Source: Nitrospinaceae bacterium (GTDB lineage: Bacteria > Nitrospinota > Nitrospinia > Nitrospinales > Nitrospinaceae). From it: a stretch of 64,000 nt of DNA. Made by a program: the position numbers and the translations under genes. Location: assembly GCA_965237905.1 (NCBI GenBank), contig OZ250172.1, forward strand, positions 1,728,001 through 1,792,000, read 5' to 3'. Position 1 is the stretch's first letter. The number at the start of each line of letters is the position of its first letter. The notes under the pieces were generated by a model, which was given only the letters and a program-made list of their open reading frames with translations, was not told the DNA's origin and ran no database searches. Of the stretch, positions 23,959 through 34,360 are shown one piece after another.

Positions 23959-24768
23959 ATGCCTAAGATCATCTGTGTTGCCAATCAGAAGGGAGGGGTC
24001 GGGAAGACCACTACGGCCATCAACCTTTCGTCCTGCATCGCCCTCACCGGAAAGAAAGTCCTTTTAATTGATTTTGACCCGCAGAGCAACGCCACCACAG
24101 GTTTGGGGCTCTATTTAAATGACTCCCAAATGGGAATTTATAATCTTATCGTCGGCGATGCTGATATTGATCAGGTCACTTATCCGACAGCCATTGATAC
24201 TCTGTATATCATCCCATCCACGGTAGATCTGGCGGGTGCAGAAATCGAACTGGTCAACCAGGAGCACAGGGAGTCAATGCTCAAAACCGCTTTGAGCCCA
24301 CTTGATTCCAAGTATGAATTTGTAGTCATTGATTGCCCCCCTTCCCTTGGCCTGTTGACATTAAACGCATTGACGGTCTGCAATTCGGTTTTGATTCCTA
24401 CGCAATGTGAATATTATTCCATGCAGGGTTTGGGTCGCTTTATACAAACCATAAAAATGCTTAAAAGCGCCCTCAATCCCGAACTAAAAATTGAGGGCAT
24501 TCTCTTGACTATGTATGATGGAAGAACTTCTCTGGCTCACCAGGTTCGGGAGCAAATCCGGAAATATTTCAAGGAATCCCTTCTGGGTACCGTCATCCCC
24601 AGGAACATTCGCTTGAGTGAAGCCCCCAGCCACGGAAAGCCCATTGTGCTGTATGACAACCATTCGAAAGGGGCCGATTCCTATATCGAGTTAGCCCGGG
24701 AAATTATTGCGCGTAATAGAAAAACCGCAGAAACATCAACCTTGGAAACCAGTGAGACGACCCCGTGA
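23959..24768 (+). CDS. parA: Chromosome partitioning ATPase ParA/Soj
   Basis: NQKGGVGKTTT, DFDPQSNAT, IDCPPSLG, IPRNIRLSEAPSHG. Confidence 0.97.
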   Translation: MPKIICVANQKGGVGKTTTAINLSSCIALTGKKVLLIDFDPQSNATTGLGLYLNDSQMGIYNLIVGDADIDQVTYPTAIDTLYIIPSTVDLAGAEIELVNQEHRESMLKTALSPLDSKYEFVVIDCPPSLGLLTLNALTVCNSVLIPTQCEYYSMQGLGRFIQTIKMLKSALNPELKIEGILLTMYDGRTSLAHQVREQIRKYFKESLLGTVIPRNIRLSEAPSHGKPIVLYDNHSKGADSYIELAREIIARNRKTAETSTLETSETTP

Positions 24769-25625
24769 ATAGACAAGCTCTAGGCAAAGGTATCAAGGCC
24801 CTCATCCCAAATTTTGAAACGAAAGAATCCGCAGGCGCCACCACGGCAGGTATGGTGGAGTTATTGATCGATGAAATATCTCCCGGTGAAACCCAGCCCA
24901 GAAAAGACTTTAATGATGAAAAACTGAAAGAGCTGGAAAACTCGATCCGGGAGAATGGAGTGATCCAGCCCATCGTTGTTCAGAAGCGGGGCGCAGGTTA
25001 TGAAATTATATGTGGCGAGCGACGCTGGCGCGCCAGCAGGAAAGCCGGTCTTAAAAAAATTCCCGCCGTTATTCGCGAGGCCAGCAGTACTCAATCCCTG
25101 CAAATGGCCCTGATCGAAAACATCCACCGCCAGGACCTGAATCCGATCGAAGAAGCTGAGGCCTATAAACGATTGTCACATGAGTTTGGACTGACGCAAG
25201 AAGTCATTGCCAAGCAGGTCGGAAAAAATCGGGCGACAGTAGCCAATTATCTCCGTCTCCTCAAGCTATCCAAGGGGTTTCAGGATGACCTGATCACCGG
25301 ACGATTGACCATGGGTCACGCCCGCGCCATGCTGGCACTGGAAACCGAGAAGGAGATGGAAGAAGTGCGTCGGGAAGTCCTCAGGCAAAACATGAATGTC
25401 CGGCAGATCGAGTCCTATATTCGGACCAAAAAGAATCCCGCGGGAGCGAGGCCTAAAAAAAAATTAGTCCATAAGGACATATTTATAAAGGATCTGGAAA
25501 AGGAATTTCAGCGCCACCTGGGTACCAAAGTGGAGATCACCCCAGGCAAAAAAGGCGGCAAAGTTGTTGTTTCTTATTATTCTATTGATGACTTGAACCG
25601 AATTCGTGATATGATAGTATCCTAA
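24765..25625 (+). CDS. parB: Chromosome partitioning protein ParB
   Basis: ALGKGIKAL, QPRKDF, GERRWRAS, ENIHRQDLNPIEEA. Confidence 0.97.
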   Translation: MNRQALGKGIKALIPNFETKESAGATTAGMVELLIDEISPGETQPRKDFNDEKLKELENSIRENGVIQPIVVQKRGAGYEIICGERRWRASRKAGLKKIPAVIREASSTQSLQMALIENIHRQDLNPIEEAEAYKRLSHEFGLTQEVIAKQVGKNRATVANYLRLLKLSKGFQDDLITGRLTMGHARAMLALETEKEMEEVRREVLRQNMNVRQIESYIRTKKNPAGARPKKKLVHKDIFIKDLEKEFQRHLGTKVEITPGKKGGKVVVSYYSIDDLNRIRDMIVS

Positions 25626-25688
25626 TTTCTGAGAGTCCCATGCCTTGTTTTTTTCCAACCCATAAAACTCCTTCCAAGGGGAGAAGAC

Positions 25689-26096
25689 ATGACCGCAAAA
25701 AATAACGTTGAGAACATTAAAGACATTAAGGCCTATTTAGGTGAAGACACTGTTTTTAGTGGGACGCTGAGTTTCAACGGCGTTGTCCGTATCGATGGCA
25801 AGATGGATGGTGAGGTCAATACCGATGACACTTTAATTGTCGGAGAAAACGGAGTTCTGGAAGCGGACATCAATGCAGGAACGGTTATCTGCCGGGGAAA
25901 AATCAAAGGAACGATCAAAGCATCCAACCGAATCGAGATTCACAACAACAGCGAAGTTGTGGGCAACATTTCAGCCCCCGCCCTTCTGGTTGAAAACGGC
26001 GCGATCTTTGACGGCAGTTGTGACATGACCGGGACCGAAGGCAAGATCATCAAGCTGGTCCAAAACGAAGAAGCGGAATCGGCCACCTCAGTTTAA
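25689..26096 (+). CDS. Bactofilin (polymer-forming cytoskeletal protein)
   Basis: Beta-helix repeats YLGEDTVFSGTLSF...RIDG...LIVGENG...ENGAIFDGSC. Confidence 0.92.
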   Translation: MTAKNNVENIKDIKAYLGEDTVFSGTLSFNGVVRIDGKMDGEVNTDDTLIVGENGVLEADINAGTVICRGKIKGTIKASNRIEIHNNSEVVGNISAPALLVENGAIFDGSCDMTGTEGKIIKLVQNEEAESATSV

Positions 26097-26122
26097 AGTC
26101 ATCCAGCAGAATCAGACAGTAG

Positions 26123-26160
26123 AAAAAACCGGCGATAGGGTTCCATCGGCCGGTTTTTTT
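26123..26160 (+). terminator. Rho-independent terminator
   Basis: AAAAAACCGGC...GCCGGTTTTTTT. Confidence 0.75.
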
Positions 26161-26250
26161 ATTCCTTCCCCACAGCACGCTACCCCATAAAAACCTTTTA
26201 ATCCAAATAGTTATTGAGATTTGCCTGGACCACCTTTACAATACGTATGT

Positions 26251-26958
26251 ATGTCACATGAAGGGAAGGGTCGCTTGTATGTGGTGAGTACTCCCATTGG
26301 AAATCTGGGGGACATCACTTACCGCTCTGTGGAAATGTTGCGTCAGGTTTCGCTGATCGCGGCGGAGGATACCCGTCGCACCAGTATTCTCCTGAACCGT
26401 TACGAGATTGCTACGCCTCTTTCCAGTTACAACAGTTACAACAAGACCCGCAAGGGTCCCGGAGTTATAAAAAAAATATGCCAGGGGGAGGACATCGCTT
26501 TGGTTTCCGATGCCGGTACGCCGGGTGTATCCGATCCTCTGTACCATCTGGTGCAGTTGGCGTTGGAACAGGAAGTGGAAGTGATTTCCATTCCCGGACC
26601 CTCGGCGGTTCTGTCGGCGTTAACGGTATCGGGATTGCCGATGGACCGTTTTCGGTTTGAAGGATTTTTACCCCGCAAAAAGAGACGCAAAAGAATTATA
26701 GAAGAGTTGGCGGAACATTCCGAAACAGTGGTGCTGTTCGAATCTCCGCAACGTATTGACAAAACTCTGAACGAGTTGAGGGAAGTGTTTGGAAACCGTA
26801 ATGCCGCTATTACCCGGGAATTGACCAAGATGCATGAAGAGGTGTTGCGGGGAGGACTAGACGATTTGTGCAAGGCCAGCGAGGGCCGTAAATGGAAGGG
26901 TGAAATAACATTAGTCCTTTCGGGCAAATCCTATAAAAACAAAAGCAAGGAGAATTAA
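26251..26958 (+). CDS. rsmI: 16S rRNA C1402 2'-O-methyltransferase
   Basis: LYVVSTPIGNLGDIT, AAEDTR, LVSDAGTPGVSDP, RELTKMHEE. Confidence 0.95.
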   Translation: MSHEGKGRLYVVSTPIGNLGDITYRSVEMLRQVSLIAAEDTRRTSILLNRYEIATPLSSYNSYNKTRKGPGVIKKICQGEDIALVSDAGTPGVSDPLYHLVQLALEQEVEVISIPGPSAVLSALTVSGLPMDRFRFEGFLPRKKRRKRIIEELAEHSETVVLFESPQRIDKTLNELREVFGNRNAAITRELTKMHEEVLRGGLDDLCKASEGRKWKGEITLVLSGKSYKNKSKEN

Positions 26959-28271
26959 TGTCGATTATTTCAGTTGTAGGTCCCAAAGGTGGCATCGGTA
27001 AAACCACTTTATCGATCAATGCCACCGCCGCGCTGACCCGGGCTCTAGCCTCCGGCAAATACAACAACCGGATTTGTCTCGTCGATTTGGACCTTCGTTT
27101 GCCTACCATCACCAGCCTTCTGGACAGCCATCCGTCCAAAACGTTTTACGATCTGTTCGAATGTCTGGGCAAAAAAACCTATCAGACCGACTTTTTGAAA
27201 ATTGTCCATCAGCTGGTCACCAGTTTCCAGGCCTATATCGATGGCAATATTCCGGCCCGCAACGAAAAGTTGATCGAGGTGTTTCACCATTACCATGTCA
27301 TGAACACCGATTTGTTCCTCGCCTCGGAATTCAAATTTGGGAATGCGATTCACGAATTGCTGATGAAGCGTCGCGAGATCAAGAACATTTCCCAAATCAA
27401 AAAATTACAACCCATCCTCAAGAAAATCGATCTCGATGAATTCAAGCGCATCCTGGATGCAATGAATCAGGCCTCCCGACCCGTGATGGAGGAATATATC
27501 AGTTACATTGAAGAGTATGGTTTCTCCATTTTAGGCGGGGAGGTCCCCATCCTGGGCAAACGGGCACACCGCAAACGGATCAACGAACCGGAATTCCTCC
27601 TGCGCTTTCTCGAATTTTTGGATACCGTGTTCCAAAAGTTTGAGCATGTGATTGTGGATACCCCGGCAGGCGGGGTTAACCACATGTCCTCCCTGATGAA
27701 TATGATCGACCAGGTTCTGTTCATATTCGACCTGAGCAACAACATCGCGATCAACGGAAGTATCGATGCCGTCCACACCTTTATCGATTATTACGAAGAG
27801 TTTCAGGCGGACTATGCCAAAGGCCAGTTGGTGGGGCTCGACCGCGCCCATGTCAAACGCCTCATCGCGCAAAAGGGGAAGGGCGACCTGTATCAATCCA
27901 TTAAAAACAAAAAACTGGGCCTCGTGTTCAACCGTTGCCAGAGCAATCACGAAATCGAGAAAGCTCTGAAAATGCTACGGGAATATCTGGATACCCTGGA
28001 CAAATATCATCAATACAAAACCCGGATCCAGATCGTGGGCATGGTTCCCAATAATAAAGTCATTAATATCACCAACAACAAAAAGACCCTTTTTTATAAT
28101 ATGGATATCGGCCTGAGTGAACGCATGGACCAGATAGCGAAAGCCGTTTTGTCGGAGAACACCACTTGCCCCACACTGGCGGATGACGACAAAACCATCA
28201 TCAGCTATTTGAATAAAATAAAGAAACCCCAGCTGTTCGATAAACTGACGAGAATAGCCAGCACCAACTGA
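26958..28271 (+). CDS. ParA/MinD-family ATPase with a large helical insertion
   Basis: Deviant Walker A GPKGGIGKTT, VDLD, IVDTPAG; 437 aa; TAATG-coupled to rsmI. Confidence 0.85.
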   Translation: MSIISVVGPKGGIGKTTLSINATAALTRALASGKYNNRICLVDLDLRLPTITSLLDSHPSKTFYDLFECLGKKTYQTDFLKIVHQLVTSFQAYIDGNIPARNEKLIEVFHHYHVMNTDLFLASEFKFGNAIHELLMKRREIKNISQIKKLQPILKKIDLDEFKRILDAMNQASRPVMEEYISYIEEYGFSILGGEVPILGKRAHRKRINEPEFLLRFLEFLDTVFQKFEHVIVDTPAGGVNHMSSLMNMIDQVLFIFDLSNNIAINGSIDAVHTFIDYYEEFQADYAKGQLVGLDRAHVKRLIAQKGKGDLYQSIKNKKLGLVFNRCQSNHEIEKALKMLREYLDTLDKYHQYKTRIQIVGMVPNNKVINITNNKKTLFYNMDIGLSERMDQIAKAVLSENTTCPTLADDDKTIISYLNKIKKPQLFDKLTRIASTN

Positions 28272-28278
28272 TCGCATT

Positions 28279-28857
28279 ATGGAAAACATCAAGCTCGGCG
28301 TACTCACTCAAGCCCAATACCAGTTTTTGGTATCCAAAGAACCTCAGGGATACTACGATAACCGGACCCGGGAGCAGTTGTACAGTTTGATCGATAAACT
28401 GGCGGGCCACAAAAAACATTGCACCAAAGAAGAAACGCGGTTGCACAAACGATTTCAGAACGCCGAATTTGGTATTCTGTTGCCGGGCAACCGCAAAACC
28501 AACGGACCTCTTAAGTTCAAGGTTTCCGTTTGTCTTGACGGAGAGCATGAAGGGGATATCACCACCGGTGGAACGCTGATCATCAACGAAAAGGGGTGTG
28601 TGCAGGGAAACATTTCGGCGAAAGAAATCGTTTGCAAAGGCAAAATGGCAGGGAATGTTTCAGCGGGTCAAAAGTTAACCCTCTATTCAACCGGAACATT
28701 GATGGGCGATGTGGTTGCACCCGCAGTTCAAATTGCTCCCGGAGCGATGTTTCAAGGAAAATGCAAATTGGGGAACCCCGGACTCAAAGCCGCACAGAAA
28801 AAAGAAGAGCGTGTCCCCATCAAAAACCGGATCATCCAATTGTTTCGAGCGGGTTAA
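28279..28857 (+). CDS. Bactofilin with an N-terminal extension domain
   Basis: C-terminal LDGEHEGDI...LIINEKG...IAPGAMFQGKC bactofilin repeats. Confidence 0.85.
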   Translation: MENIKLGVLTQAQYQFLVSKEPQGYYDNRTREQLYSLIDKLAGHKKHCTKEETRLHKRFQNAEFGILLPGNRKTNGPLKFKVSVCLDGEHEGDITTGGTLIINEKGCVQGNISAKEIVCKGKMAGNVSAGQKLTLYSTGTLMGDVVAPAVQIAPGAMFQGKCKLGNPGLKAAQKKEERVPIKNRIIQLFRAG

Positions 28858-28953
28858 AAAGGTGACATTTCTCCTTAATTGCTCATTCGAAAACTGCAAA
28901 TTGCTCCCAACGTGATCGGCAAGAAAAAACCGTTGGGCACAAGTTACGTTTTA

Positions 28954-29089
28954 AAATTTGCTCCGGGCCATGCCCGGCCCCTCTGGGGAAGAGGCGGCGC
29001 ATCGCCGCAGATAAATTTAGGATATTCAAATGCGCTCCAGGATTATAGTCAGCTGTTAGCTGTCAGCCAGTTCCCACTCTGGGGAAGAG
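28954..29089 (-). repeat. Hairpin repeat family copy (minus strand) plus accessory hairpins
   Basis: Core GTTAGCTGTCAGCCAGTTCCCACTCTGGGGAAGAG at 29055-29089; 28993-29017 is nearly the reverse complement of 3186-3210; AAATTTGCTCCGGGCCATGCCCGG at 28954 matches 1861. Confidence 0.8.
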
Positions 29090-29091
29090 TT

Positions 29092-30216
29092 ATGACGGAT
29101 CAGAAACTCAATGTACTCACCATCACAGAATACAATTTAATTGCGACCAAGGATCCCGTCGGCAGTTACGACCGCCGCACCCGCGAGAATCTGTACGCAA
29201 TCATCCTCAAACTAAGCGATTTCAGGGCCAATCTCTCTCCTCTGGAGTTCACCGTTTTCCAGAAATTCCAGGGCGCCCAGTTTGCACCCCTCGGAGAAAA
29301 AGACAAGAAAGTAAAATTTGAAGTTCTCCGTTACCTGCTGTCGGCCCGGGTCCGGCGGACGGCGAGAATCGCAGGCATCACCCTGGCCATACTAGCGGTA
29401 TCCACCCTGACGGTTTATCACTTCTTCCTCAGCGCAGAAACCCAGAAACAAGTGGACCTGGCCTATTATGCCGGTTTGAGCAAACTGGGTCTGGCATCCC
29501 AGGAAGAAATGGCCATGGTGGAAAATAGTCTGCACCAGACGGAAGCCACACTGGTAAAAACTCAAAAGAAAAAAGAAGAGCTGGAGAAAATGGTGGCCCG
29601 CTTGATTGCGAACAACAAGGTCGCCGAAAATTTCAAGCATATCGTCAAGCACATTTATAACGACCCCCGAACCATCTACACCAAAACCACCAACACCATA
29701 GACCTGGAATTTGCAAATAAACGGATCGCCCGCTACGAAACCGATCCTGAAATGTGGTACCTCCTGGGTATTCTGGATACCGGTAGGCTGAAAGTGTTTT
29801 ACGATAACGAAGAGATCATGGAAATCGAAGCCATTTTCGGCCGCAAGGGAGAAGAAACCCCGCTGGGCGAATACGAGATCAAAAACCGGCTCTACCAACC
29901 CACCTGGTACAAAAAGGAAATCATCAACGGTAAACCGATCGTCCGCCCCATCCCCTTCGGCGATGCAGATCATGAGATCGGCCACTGGTGGCTGGGGCTC
30001 AAAAAGCTGGGTCCCGAGGTCCATGGCAGTTACGGGATTCACGGGGTCAATCTCAGCAAGTCCAATGAGTTTTTCAAAAAGAACTTCGACTGGCGTAGCG
30101 GCAGTGCCGGATGCCCCAATATCCAGGAATGGTATCTGGATTTCCTGGCCAATATCCTCCCCCTCGGCACCCACGTCAACATCGTCCAGAAAGACAAGTG
30201 GGTCAAATCCACTTGA
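29092..30216 (+). CDS. Membrane-anchored L,D-transpeptidase (YkuD family)
   Basis: TM helix, coiled coil, TPLGEYEI, PTW, YGIHG...SAGCPNI...LPLGTHVNI; start 29092 supported by homology to the bactofilin N-terminus. Confidence 0.85.
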   Translation: MTDQKLNVLTITEYNLIATKDPVGSYDRRTRENLYAIILKLSDFRANLSPLEFTVFQKFQGAQFAPLGEKDKKVKFEVLRYLLSARVRRTARIAGITLAILAVSTLTVYHFFLSAETQKQVDLAYYAGLSKLGLASQEEMAMVENSLHQTEATLVKTQKKKEELEKMVARLIANNKVAENFKHIVKHIYNDPRTIYTKTTNTIDLEFANKRIARYETDPEMWYLLGILDTGRLKVFYDNEEIMEIEAIFGRKGEETPLGEYEIKNRLYQPTWYKKEIINGKPIVRPIPFGDADHEIGHWWLGLKKLGPEVHGSYGIHGVNLSKSNEFFKKNFDWRSGSAGCPNIQEWYLDFLANILPLGTHVNIVQKDKWVKST

Positions 30217-30424
30217 CTCCTCCCCGGAGGGGGAAATTGTTGACCGTTATCGGCATCCGATAGATTTCCTGCACAATTAAAAGATTTTAAAAATACCAGC
30301 GGAGGTACTCCGCCGGCGATTCGCCGCTGATAATATTAAACTCCCAATTGTGCCGGGGAATTAATGACAGCTGTTAACGGTCAACAATTTCCCCCTCCGG
30401 GGAGGAGGCGGCGATTCGCCGCTG
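30217..30424. repeat. Inverted pair of hairpin repeat copies (REPIN-like doublet)
   Basis: CTCCTCCCCGGAGGGGGAAATTGTTGACCGTTA at 30217 and its exact reverse complement ending at 30407; internal hairpins GCGGAGGTACTCCGC and CGGCGATTCGCCG. Confidence 0.9.
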
Positions 30425-33151: not shown

Positions 33152-34360
33152 ATGAACAATGACCAAATTGCCCTCTATCTGAACGATCATCCTGAATTTT
33201 TCAACCAGTACCCGGAACTGCTGGACCGGATTCAATCCATCGCCCCGGAGGACATGCCTCTCAAGCCGGTCAAAACCCTGAACATCGCCGACCGCATTTT
33301 GAAGCGGGCGCAGGCTGATAAGGAGCACATGAAAAACCAGCTGGTCAGCTTCATGGAAATCAGCCAGGCTAACGACAAAATTCAGGAGAACCTGTTCGCG
33401 ATCGACCGCATCATCATGTACAGCCTCAACTTTTCCCAGATGATCGGCCAACTGCGTGAGGAAATCATCACGCGCTTCAAAATTCCGGGAGTCCAGATTA
33501 TTTTGATGGATGGCGACGAGCACTTGATGGAGCGGTGTTTGAAGGAACGTTTGGACAAAAATGCGATCGATGGTTTGCAATTTGTCGACACGAATACCGT
33601 CACCGGCTGGTTTGGTGCCGATCTCAAGCCTGTTCTCCGGGCGGAGATAACGGAGGGCTCGGAAATTTGTGGCGCCACTCCAGAATTGAACATTCAATCG
33701 GAAGCGTTGATCCCGATCATACTGCACGGCAATTTGATCGGAGCCATGGCGTTAGGAAGCGAAAATCCGAACCATTTCCACAAAGGATTGCGTACTGATC
33801 TTCTGGAACGCACCGCCGACAAACTGGGCATTGCCATCGAAAACGTGCTGCTACTCGATCTCATGAAAAACCAGCCGGTGCTGGATTCCAAGACGGGGCT
33901 TTACAATGAGGTTTATCTCGATCCCGTTCTGCGCCGCGAATTCGGCTGGGCTCAATGCTACGGTAAAAGCCTGTCTCTCATTAAAATGCACATTGACTCT
34001 TTTGAGGAACTCGTGAATACTTATGGGAAATCACGCATCAAGAAGGTCTTGCAGGAGGCCGGCAAAGTGCTTGCGGAGAACAGCCGTGGGGGCGATATTA
34101 TGATCAGCGCCGGTGAGGGGGATTTCCTGATTTTACTGCCGGATACGTCGGAACAGGGTGCCGGGCAAATCGCTCAGCGAATCCGAAAAATGTTGATAAC
34201 CCACATGTTTCCGGAACTGGAAAACGATTGCGTGAGGATTATTTTTGGAGTGACTGCCACCTCCGGCAAGGGCATCGAGTCTCCGGCCGATCTATTGGCG
34301 GCGGCTTCGGACGCCTTGGAAAAGGCTAAAGGGCAGAAGGACAGCGCACTGACCGTATGA
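33152..34360 (+). CDS. DUF484/GAF domain fused to a degenerate GGDEF domain
   Basis: IALYLNDHPEFF, SEALIP...ALGSENPNHF, DSKTGLYN; active-site motif reads AGEGDF. Confidence 0.8.
   Translation: MNNDQIALYLNDHPEFFNQYPELLDRIQSIAPEDMPLKPVKTLNIADRILKRAQADKEHMKNQLVSFMEISQANDKIQENLFAIDRIIMYSLNFSQMIGQLREEIITRFKIPGVQIILMDGDEHLMERCLKERLDKNAIDGLQFVDTNTVTGWFGADLKPVLRAEITEGSEICGATPELNIQSEALIPIILHGNLIGAMALGSENPNHFHKGLRTDLLERTADKLGIAIENVLLLDLMKNQPVLDSKTGLYNEVYLDPVLRREFGWAQCYGKSLSLIKMHIDSFEELVNTYGKSRIKKVLQEAGKVLAENSRGGDIMISAGEGDFLILLPDTSEQGAGQIAQRIRKMLITHMFPELENDCVRIIFGVTATSGKGIESPADLLAAASDALEKAKGQKDSALTV

Follow-up and report, generated by a model that had tools for sequence, protein, structure and literature searches.

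In the BacA-LmdC pair of Hyphomonas neptunium and Rhodospirillum rubrum, a bactofilin gene adjoins the gene of a bitopic cell-wall enzyme, LmdC, the cytoplasmic tail of which binds the bactofilin (PMC10945521). In Bacillus subtilis, a MinD-type ATPase is tied cytoplasmically to a bitopic peptidoglycan enzyme in flagellated cells: the FlhG dimer binds GpsB, and GpsB recruits PBP1 (PMC12327844, PMC12826062). The locus described here lies in a window of 64,000 nucleotides from a Nitrospinaceae bacterium (assembly GCA_965237905.1, contig OZ250172.1, positions 1,728,001 to 1,792,000, forward strand), and consists of a cassette of three genes encoding a MinD/FlhG-type ATPase, a bactofilin and a bitopic peptidoglycan enzyme of the YkuD family. 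The bactofilin and the enzyme begin with the same domain of 67 residues, called the shared domain below. The cassette was likened to both systems in working and, on this comparison, is a member of neither. Its features in the window are:

26958-28271, + strand: gene of the MinD/FlhG-type ATPase (437 amino acids; AAA_31/CbiA/ParA over the Pfam cut-off)
28279-28857, + strand: bactofilin gene (192 amino acids; Pfam PF04519 at residues 71-163, E 2e-24)
29092-30216, + strand: gene of the bitopic YkuD-family peptidoglycan enzyme (374 amino acids; PF03734 YkuD at residues 229-364, E 6e-13)
28279-28479, + strand: shared domain, bactofilin copy (residues 1-67)
29092-29292, + strand: shared domain, enzyme copy (residues 1-67)
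29101-29172, + strand: residues 4-27 of the enzyme copy, similar to the phage fibre-tip motif PF24243

The enzyme has a cytoplasmic N-terminus, a transmembrane (TM) helix and a periplasmic coiled coil in common with LmdC, and as in BacA-LmdC its gene adjoins that of a bactofilin (PMC10945521). Unlike in that pair, as described in the same source, the catalytic domain is YkuD and not M23, the short tail is replaced by a domain of ~67 residues that the bactofilin carries as well, a MinD-type ATPase is obligate, and it is the bactofilin and not the ATPase that is dispensable. Compared with FlhG-GpsB-PBP1, the cassette has no GpsB-like adaptor and its ATPase no FlhF-activating helix; the ATPase has two large helical insertions, and a canonical FlhG is encoded separately. 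The three genes lay where the first-pass annotation had placed them. The open reading frame of the enzyme as called by the program opened with TTG at 28879, and homologues aligned from the ATG at 29092, in agreement with the start chosen earlier.

Among loci L031 to L118, 66 spanned rsmI to argH, and 64 unique intervals remained after the removal of 2 duplicates; many loci were picked for unusual states, and the interval counts are therefore not frequencies. All three genes were present in 41 intervals, the ATPase and the enzyme only in 12, the bactofilin only in 4, and none in 7, 3 of which held enzyme remnants. No intact interval with the ATPase alone or with an intact enzyme alone was found among the 64. 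Fourteen further stretches were empty (10) or ended at a contig edge (4). Trees of the flanking genes indicated 5 losses of the bactofilin by itself and 9 of the ATPase with the enzyme; twice, in separate lineages, the ATPase and enzyme genes, which are not adjacent, were lost jointly and left the bactofilin between them in place. Because no intact interval had just one member of this pair, and because both were lost around the bactofilin, the ATPase and the enzyme form the functional core. The co-conservation of the three-gene neighbourhood was borne out across the order Nitrospinales. The proposal of the first-pass annotation that the shared domain couples a bactofilin polymer to the enzyme fared less well: the topology fits cytoplasmic docking, but the bactofilin is dispensable (12 of 64 intervals) and such coupling cannot be the core function.

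Several loci were arranged differently. A domain-bearing bactofilin was found outside the usual locus, between two cyclic-nucleotide-binding-like genes (genome G063, L116:5607-6155). In genome G044 (L041:2480-6541), flagellin genes of opposite orientation came after the ATPase gene, and a different contig held the enzyme gene, preceded by a short ATPase-like piece, either by rearrangement or by misassembly. Intervals of one clade without the cassette (L092:8700-9850, L094:5060-9430, L095:1530-9260) held other genes, by eye a toxin-antitoxin-like pair, a restriction-modification-like set or a transposase piece.

Among 120 Nitrospinota genomes, the domain profile was found in 74, the ATPase in 71 and the YkuD catalytic domain in 71, and none of the three was found in the 18 genomes outside Nitrospinales. 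Named relatives were labelled Nitrospinota at 41 of 43 loci, the exceptions being one Nitrospirae label and one Opitutia contig of 2 kilobases (kb). A 35-sequence domain profile searched against 1.84 billion representative proteins returned 44 proteins, 21 with a Pfam bactofilin domain and 1 with YkuD; 21 others without a Pfam domain were pieces of 60-216 amino acids, some aligning onward to the enzyme or the bactofilin. The remaining match (P0128) was rejected as a low-complexity repeat artefact. No fusion of the domain to other proteins was seen among these 44 matches. Ten divergent clusters were looked up, and the five most divergent with names were all Nitrospinota. The public record of the cultured, helical Ca. 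Nitrohelix vancouverensis contains a domain-bearing bactofilin (P0123). The cassette is real, ancient and specific to the order, with an inferred mechanism; no description of it was found in the literature searched, which excluded subscription journals and supplements.

The gapless identity of the two N-termini at 27/67 residues, as counted in the first-pass annotation, was reproduced; the highest count in 100,000 shuffles was 14. BLASTP between the two copies gave E 2e-14, their DNA was identical at 98/201 positions, and no third copy was found in the genome at E < 0.08. Mean identity was 64% among enzyme copies and 43% among bactofilin copies. In a tree of domain copies, 53 enzyme and 45 bactofilin sequences split cleanly (support 0.993), which implies one duplication before the Nitrospinales radiated; recent duplication or gene conversion was ruled out by the same split. 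Residues 1-67 of the bactofilin or the enzyme matched no Pfam family over the cut-off and no NCBIfam family, the ESM Atlas gave no usable match, and the best PDB sequence match to the domain profile had E 0.17. The description of the domain as unrecognised therefore holds for the whole, which is uncatalogued, but not for the first ~25 residues, which scored just under the cut-off of PF24243; this likeness to a phage fibre-tip motif is partial and below threshold, and falls short of a match of the domain to a known unrelated family. An AlphaFold2 model of the enzyme copy had three helices (residues 11-19, 28-43 and 50-59), with a predicted local distance difference test score (pLDDT) of ~80 over residues 11-60. 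This model was compared with 48,161 chains (highest Z 5.0) and searched with Foldseek (lowest E 0.78), with no significant fold match, and these results establish neither a new nor a known fold.

The ratio of nonsynonymous to synonymous substitution rates (dN/dS) of the enzyme domain was 0.19-0.40 in 6 pairs from two long clades without the bactofilin, 0.04-0.17 in three-gene pairs (12, of which 11 gave an estimate), and 0.08-0.14 in 3 mixed pairs. With the bactofilin or the enzyme gone, the domain of the remaining protein was still under purifying selection, which argues for a role beyond contact between bactofilin and enzyme. Residues N15, L16, K20, G24, Y26, D27, T30, R31, L51, E52 and K58 were invariant regardless of the bactofilin. 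Y35 was kept in 37 of 41 three-gene loci, the 4 exceptions having diverged bactofilin domains. Of the two long bactofilin-less clades, one kept it in none of its 4 members and the other in 1 of its 7. These patterns suggest that the enzyme's copy partly relaxes without the bactofilin. On our reading, part of the domain would serve the bactofilin and most of it something else, either itself or the ATPase.

The ATPase, earlier called ParA/MinD-like, is of MinD/FlhG type and not of ParA type: its nearest solved sequences were FleN and MinD, and the folds nearest to its model (pLDDT 75) were FlhG 4rz2 and FleN 5j1j. In common with MinD, FlhG and FleN it has the deviant Walker A motif with signature lysine, switch I, the DTPAG Walker B motif and a putative C-terminal amphipathic helix, besides the best fold matches. 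It differs from them in length (437 versus ~260-295 amino acids), for which two helical insertions (~70-185 and ~280-318) account, and in the lack of MinC in the phylum. Motifs G8/K10-G12/G14-T17, D43, D234-G238 and N325-R326 were invariant or nearly so in 50 sequences. The protein scored under all NCBIfam cut-offs (MinD, 41 versus 212.9 bits), and its ESM Atlas neighbours were its own cluster and then generic MinD/ParA clusters. Its last helix had a median hydrophobic moment of 0.63 over 53 relatives, in most of which it was amphipathic and basic; it had a low pLDDT in the model, and is probably a membrane-targeting sequence. Identity with FlhG was rejected: the ATPase begins at its first strand, so that the N-terminal DQAxxLR helix described for FlhG (PMC12826062) is absent, the gene is not beside flhF, and a canonical flhA-flhF-flhG-fliA cluster occurs elsewhere in the genome, with FlhG at C1:491770-492654. 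Global profile alignment of the ATPase to FlhG was unreliable past residue 70. A place in a MinCDE system was rejected because MinC was found in 0 of 120 Nitrospinota genomes (control detected in 6 of 14). The absence of MinC raises the question of division-site choice in these rods.

The enzyme consists of the cytoplasmic domain, a juxtamembrane helix, the TM helix (~93-113), a predicted periplasmic coiled coil and the catalytic domain. Its single hydrophobic stretch peaked at residues 95-113 and was preceded by 5 K/R and followed by 1, which predicts a cytoplasmic position for the shared domain ahead of the TM helix, as proposed earlier. The YkuD domain, the sole match to this family in the genome, scored 50.1 bits against a cut-off of 23.4, and H317, Gly318 and C341 were kept in 53/53 full-length relatives; residues 72-84 were conserved as well. 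A PDB search with the enzyme profile gave no match at E ≤ 0.01 and no close solved relative. The fold and the invariant His, Gly and Cys are common to Csd6/Pgp2-type L,D-carboxypeptidases and ErfK/YkuD L,D-transpeptidases, from which the enzyme differs in being membrane-anchored with a cytoplasmic domain and in its His-Cys spacing, H-G-X22-C, longer than the H(S/G/D)X14-19C motif common to transpeptidases and the carboxypeptidase Csd6 (PMC4599014). Because YkuD domains include L,D-carboxypeptidases (PMC4599014) and the spacing is atypical, 3-3 crosslinking is not established; the enzyme may either crosslink or trim stem peptides.

The bactofilin domain scored 85.9 bits against a cut-off of 27.9, and the shared domain is fused directly to its first beta-helix rung, where it might hinder head-to-head filament contacts. 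The MFSK-type N-terminal membrane-targeting peptide of bactofilins (PMC12448750) is not at this N-terminus, which the shared domain occupies. The C-terminal tail was basic (median net charge +3) and clearly amphipathic in just 16 of 45 sequences, and it may substitute for that peptide. A third bactofilin of the genome (G000:C1:315401-317644, - strand, 748 amino acids) has its bactofilin domain at the N-terminus, followed by a long remainder.

The likeness of residues 4-27 to PF24243, a 26-residue phage tail-tip motif, was found in 8 of 98 domain members at E ≤ 0.05, and four other Pfam families matched one member each. The best PF24243 score was 23.4 bits (E 4e-5), below the curated cut-off of 23.7 bits, over about one third of the shared domain. 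In PHROGs, phrog_1560 positions 37-59 matched 5 of 98 members and coincided with the same segment. In a profile-profile comparison the probability was 95% across 25 columns and 0.1% with the reversed profile, a partly circular result because the phage rows had been found by similarity. Matches of the segment to phage genomes in tblastn were weak (E 0.2-7), and all 7 of those opened were at the extreme C-terminus of tail-region proteins. The motif terminates the Bxb1 collar fibre gp4 and 80alpha FibU, a predicted collagen-like protein seen in 12 copies with its C-terminal part unresolved (PMC7048315); a trimerising role for it is our own suggestion. The domain and the motif agree in a strand-helix-KDP-loop-Tyr pattern over ~24 residues, but here the segment is N-terminal, predicted to be cytoplasmic and followed by two more helices. 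The likeness may reflect homology or convergence.

The mechanism preferred here, about as likely as not, is that a membrane-cycling ATPase gathers the enzyme through a cytoplasmic handle, with the bactofilin as an optional scaffold, for local wall editing; all contacts among the cassette proteins in it are inferred. By analogy with MinD and FlhG, the ATPase would dimerise on ATP and bind the inner membrane by its C-terminal helix. The cytoplasmic domain of the enzyme would be the handle by which the enzyme is gathered at a site, its invariant surface (the residues N15 to K58 named above) would be used for self-assembly, for binding the ATPase or for both, and the bactofilin would be contacted through another patch around Y35. 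The bactofilin, with an old duplicate of the handle, would join the assembly as an optional scaffold. The outcome would be altered crosslinking or trimming of stem peptides at that site, tuning the shape or a pole of motile cells, and such a wall-editing system could be dispensed with after loss of motility appendages. What is directly shown is the gene order, the sharing of the domain, the intact catalytic motifs, the strict co-inheritance of ATPase and enzyme and the optional nature of the bactofilin; the interval states, the joint losses around a kept bactofilin, the dN/dS and Y35 patterns, the intact motifs and FlhG/FleN/MinD-like fold of the ATPase, and the LmdC and FlhG-GpsB precedents speak for this mechanism.

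Several observations weigh against this mechanism. The dN/dS comparison rests on 67 codons and two clades. The bactofilin domain was constrained (dN/dS 0.10 and 0.18) in two lineage pairs without the ATPase and the enzyme, for which docking to a partner alone is no explanation. Y35 was retained in L045 and L110, where the bactofilin domain has diverged, and in the bactofilin-less loci L056, L068, L071, L087 and L089. The two domain copies of one genome did not resemble each other significantly more than copies paired across genomes (p = 0.09). A four-genome clade lacks the last helix of the ATPase, and another clade has a different tail.

The constraint on the domain in each protein without the other would also be expected if it were a self-oligomerisation module (foldon-like, possibly a trimer) used independently by the bactofilin and the enzyme, with no contact between them through it and with the ATPase acting on, for example, the juxtamembrane helix, residues 72-84 of the enzyme being conserved. 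The PF24243 likeness, the C-terminal position of all 7 phage matches opened and the motif at the ends of gp4 and FibU speak for this account. Against it, the PF24243 score is short of the family cut-off and concerns one third of the domain, FibU does not establish the oligomeric state of the motif (PMC7048315), and the partial relaxation and the loss of Y35 after bactofilin loss are left unexplained; this account is rather unlikely. Placement of the cassette at the division site or the chromosome, with the ATPase replacing the missing Min system or tying ParABS to the wall, would agree with the absence of MinC and with the position of the cassette directly behind parA-parB-bactofilin-rsmI and ~31 kb from dnaA. 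Myxococcus BacNOP-PadC is reportedly a precedent for a chromosome link. The nine losses of ATPase and enzyme, some in single-contig genomes, left parAB in place, which is unlike a core division system, and the tail of the ATPase is of membrane type; this explanation was considered very unlikely.

A third possibility is a circuit dedicated to the flagellum, in which the ATPase, as a second FlhG-like protein, would direct the editing of the wall where flagella are assembled and the bactofilin would act like B. subtilis BacE/BacF, which are required for the assembly of hook and filament (PMC4627819). In the 51 genomes with a completeness of 90% or more, flagellin was found in all 40 with the ATPase, and of the 11 without it 7 lacked FliG and an eighth lacked flagellin (in one of the 11, rsmI was likewise not found and the locus may be unassembled). 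All five lineages with neither FliG nor a strong flagellin match had an empty interval, two of them resting on genomes less than 90% complete, and a sixth is losing both; Fisher tests treat kin as independent and are overstated. The nearest structures of the ATPase, FlhG and FleN, also agree with this possibility. Against it, three lineages have flagellar genes but no ATPase and enzyme, one of them with vertically inherited FliG; the idea of a foreign flagellum in such lineages was rejected. PilM gave nearly the same table (40/40 with the ATPase, 6/11 without; three cassette-bearing genomes at 85-89% lacked it), which makes streamlining a confounder. The canonical flhA-flhF-flhG-fliA cluster elsewhere and the missing DQAxxLR helix also count against it, as does the lack of a sigma28-like site upstream of 53 ATPases, 45 bactofilins and 53 enzymes. 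A flagellum-dedicated circuit is quite improbable; the cassette belongs with a motile, appendage-bearing lifestyle and is not tied specifically to the flagellum by these data.

Several genomes of genera g18 and g22 (L133-L172) had two or three fliG copies in distinct clades, which suggests a second flagellar system. A second PilM-like gene (frames ~590-610 amino acids) lay 10-12 kb from fliG in many genomes (for example G023:C1:1267479-1268534, G020:C1:2617857-2618909 and G012:C49:286233-287294). It recalls the flagellar motor cage of Helicobacter, which contains PilM/N/O homologues.

Gene order around the cassette was etfA-rsmG-parA-parB-bactofilin-rsmI-[ATPase-bactofilin-enzyme]-argH, with the upstream context:

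23959-26958, + strand: parA, parB, a canonical bactofilin gene (25689-26096) and rsmI

The end of rsmI and the start of the ATPase gene share one base, and parA-parB-bactofilin-rsmI was retained where the cassette was lost. A promoter and terminator scan gave a result at chance level. Short palindromic elements were repeated at window positions 30217-30410, between the enzyme gene and argH, and the lengths of this spacer and of that before the enzyme gene were highly variable among relatives. Behind argH, at window positions 33152-34360, lies a gene of 402 amino acids, by eye a GAF and degenerate GGDEF protein, the frame of which was merely ~245-290 amino acids in several relatives.

Among the known nitrite oxidisers of the marine water column, Nitrospinota are the most abundant (PMC10839748); their shapes are helical, curved and long straight (PMC8026999), and the literature searched contained no work on their morphogenesis. 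A more far-reaching scenario, itself quite unlikely, is that a phage fibre-tip oligomerisation motif became a cytoplasmic handle and was duplicated once before the Nitrospinales radiated, that through it the MinD-type ATPase grips the periplasmic enzyme directly across the membrane, and that the bactofilin, entering mixed oligomers by the same handle, ties the enzyme to the ends of filaments so that the wall is edited at the places required by motile cells; if true, this would be a MinD ATPase with a peptidoglycan enzyme as cargo and no separate adaptor. With its natural deletion states, the cassette is suited to testing directly if a fused handle lets a MinD-type ATPase position a wall enzyme, and the culture of Ca. 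Nitrohelix vancouverensis makes localisation testable. The cassette also bears on how bactofilins gain clients by domain duplication.

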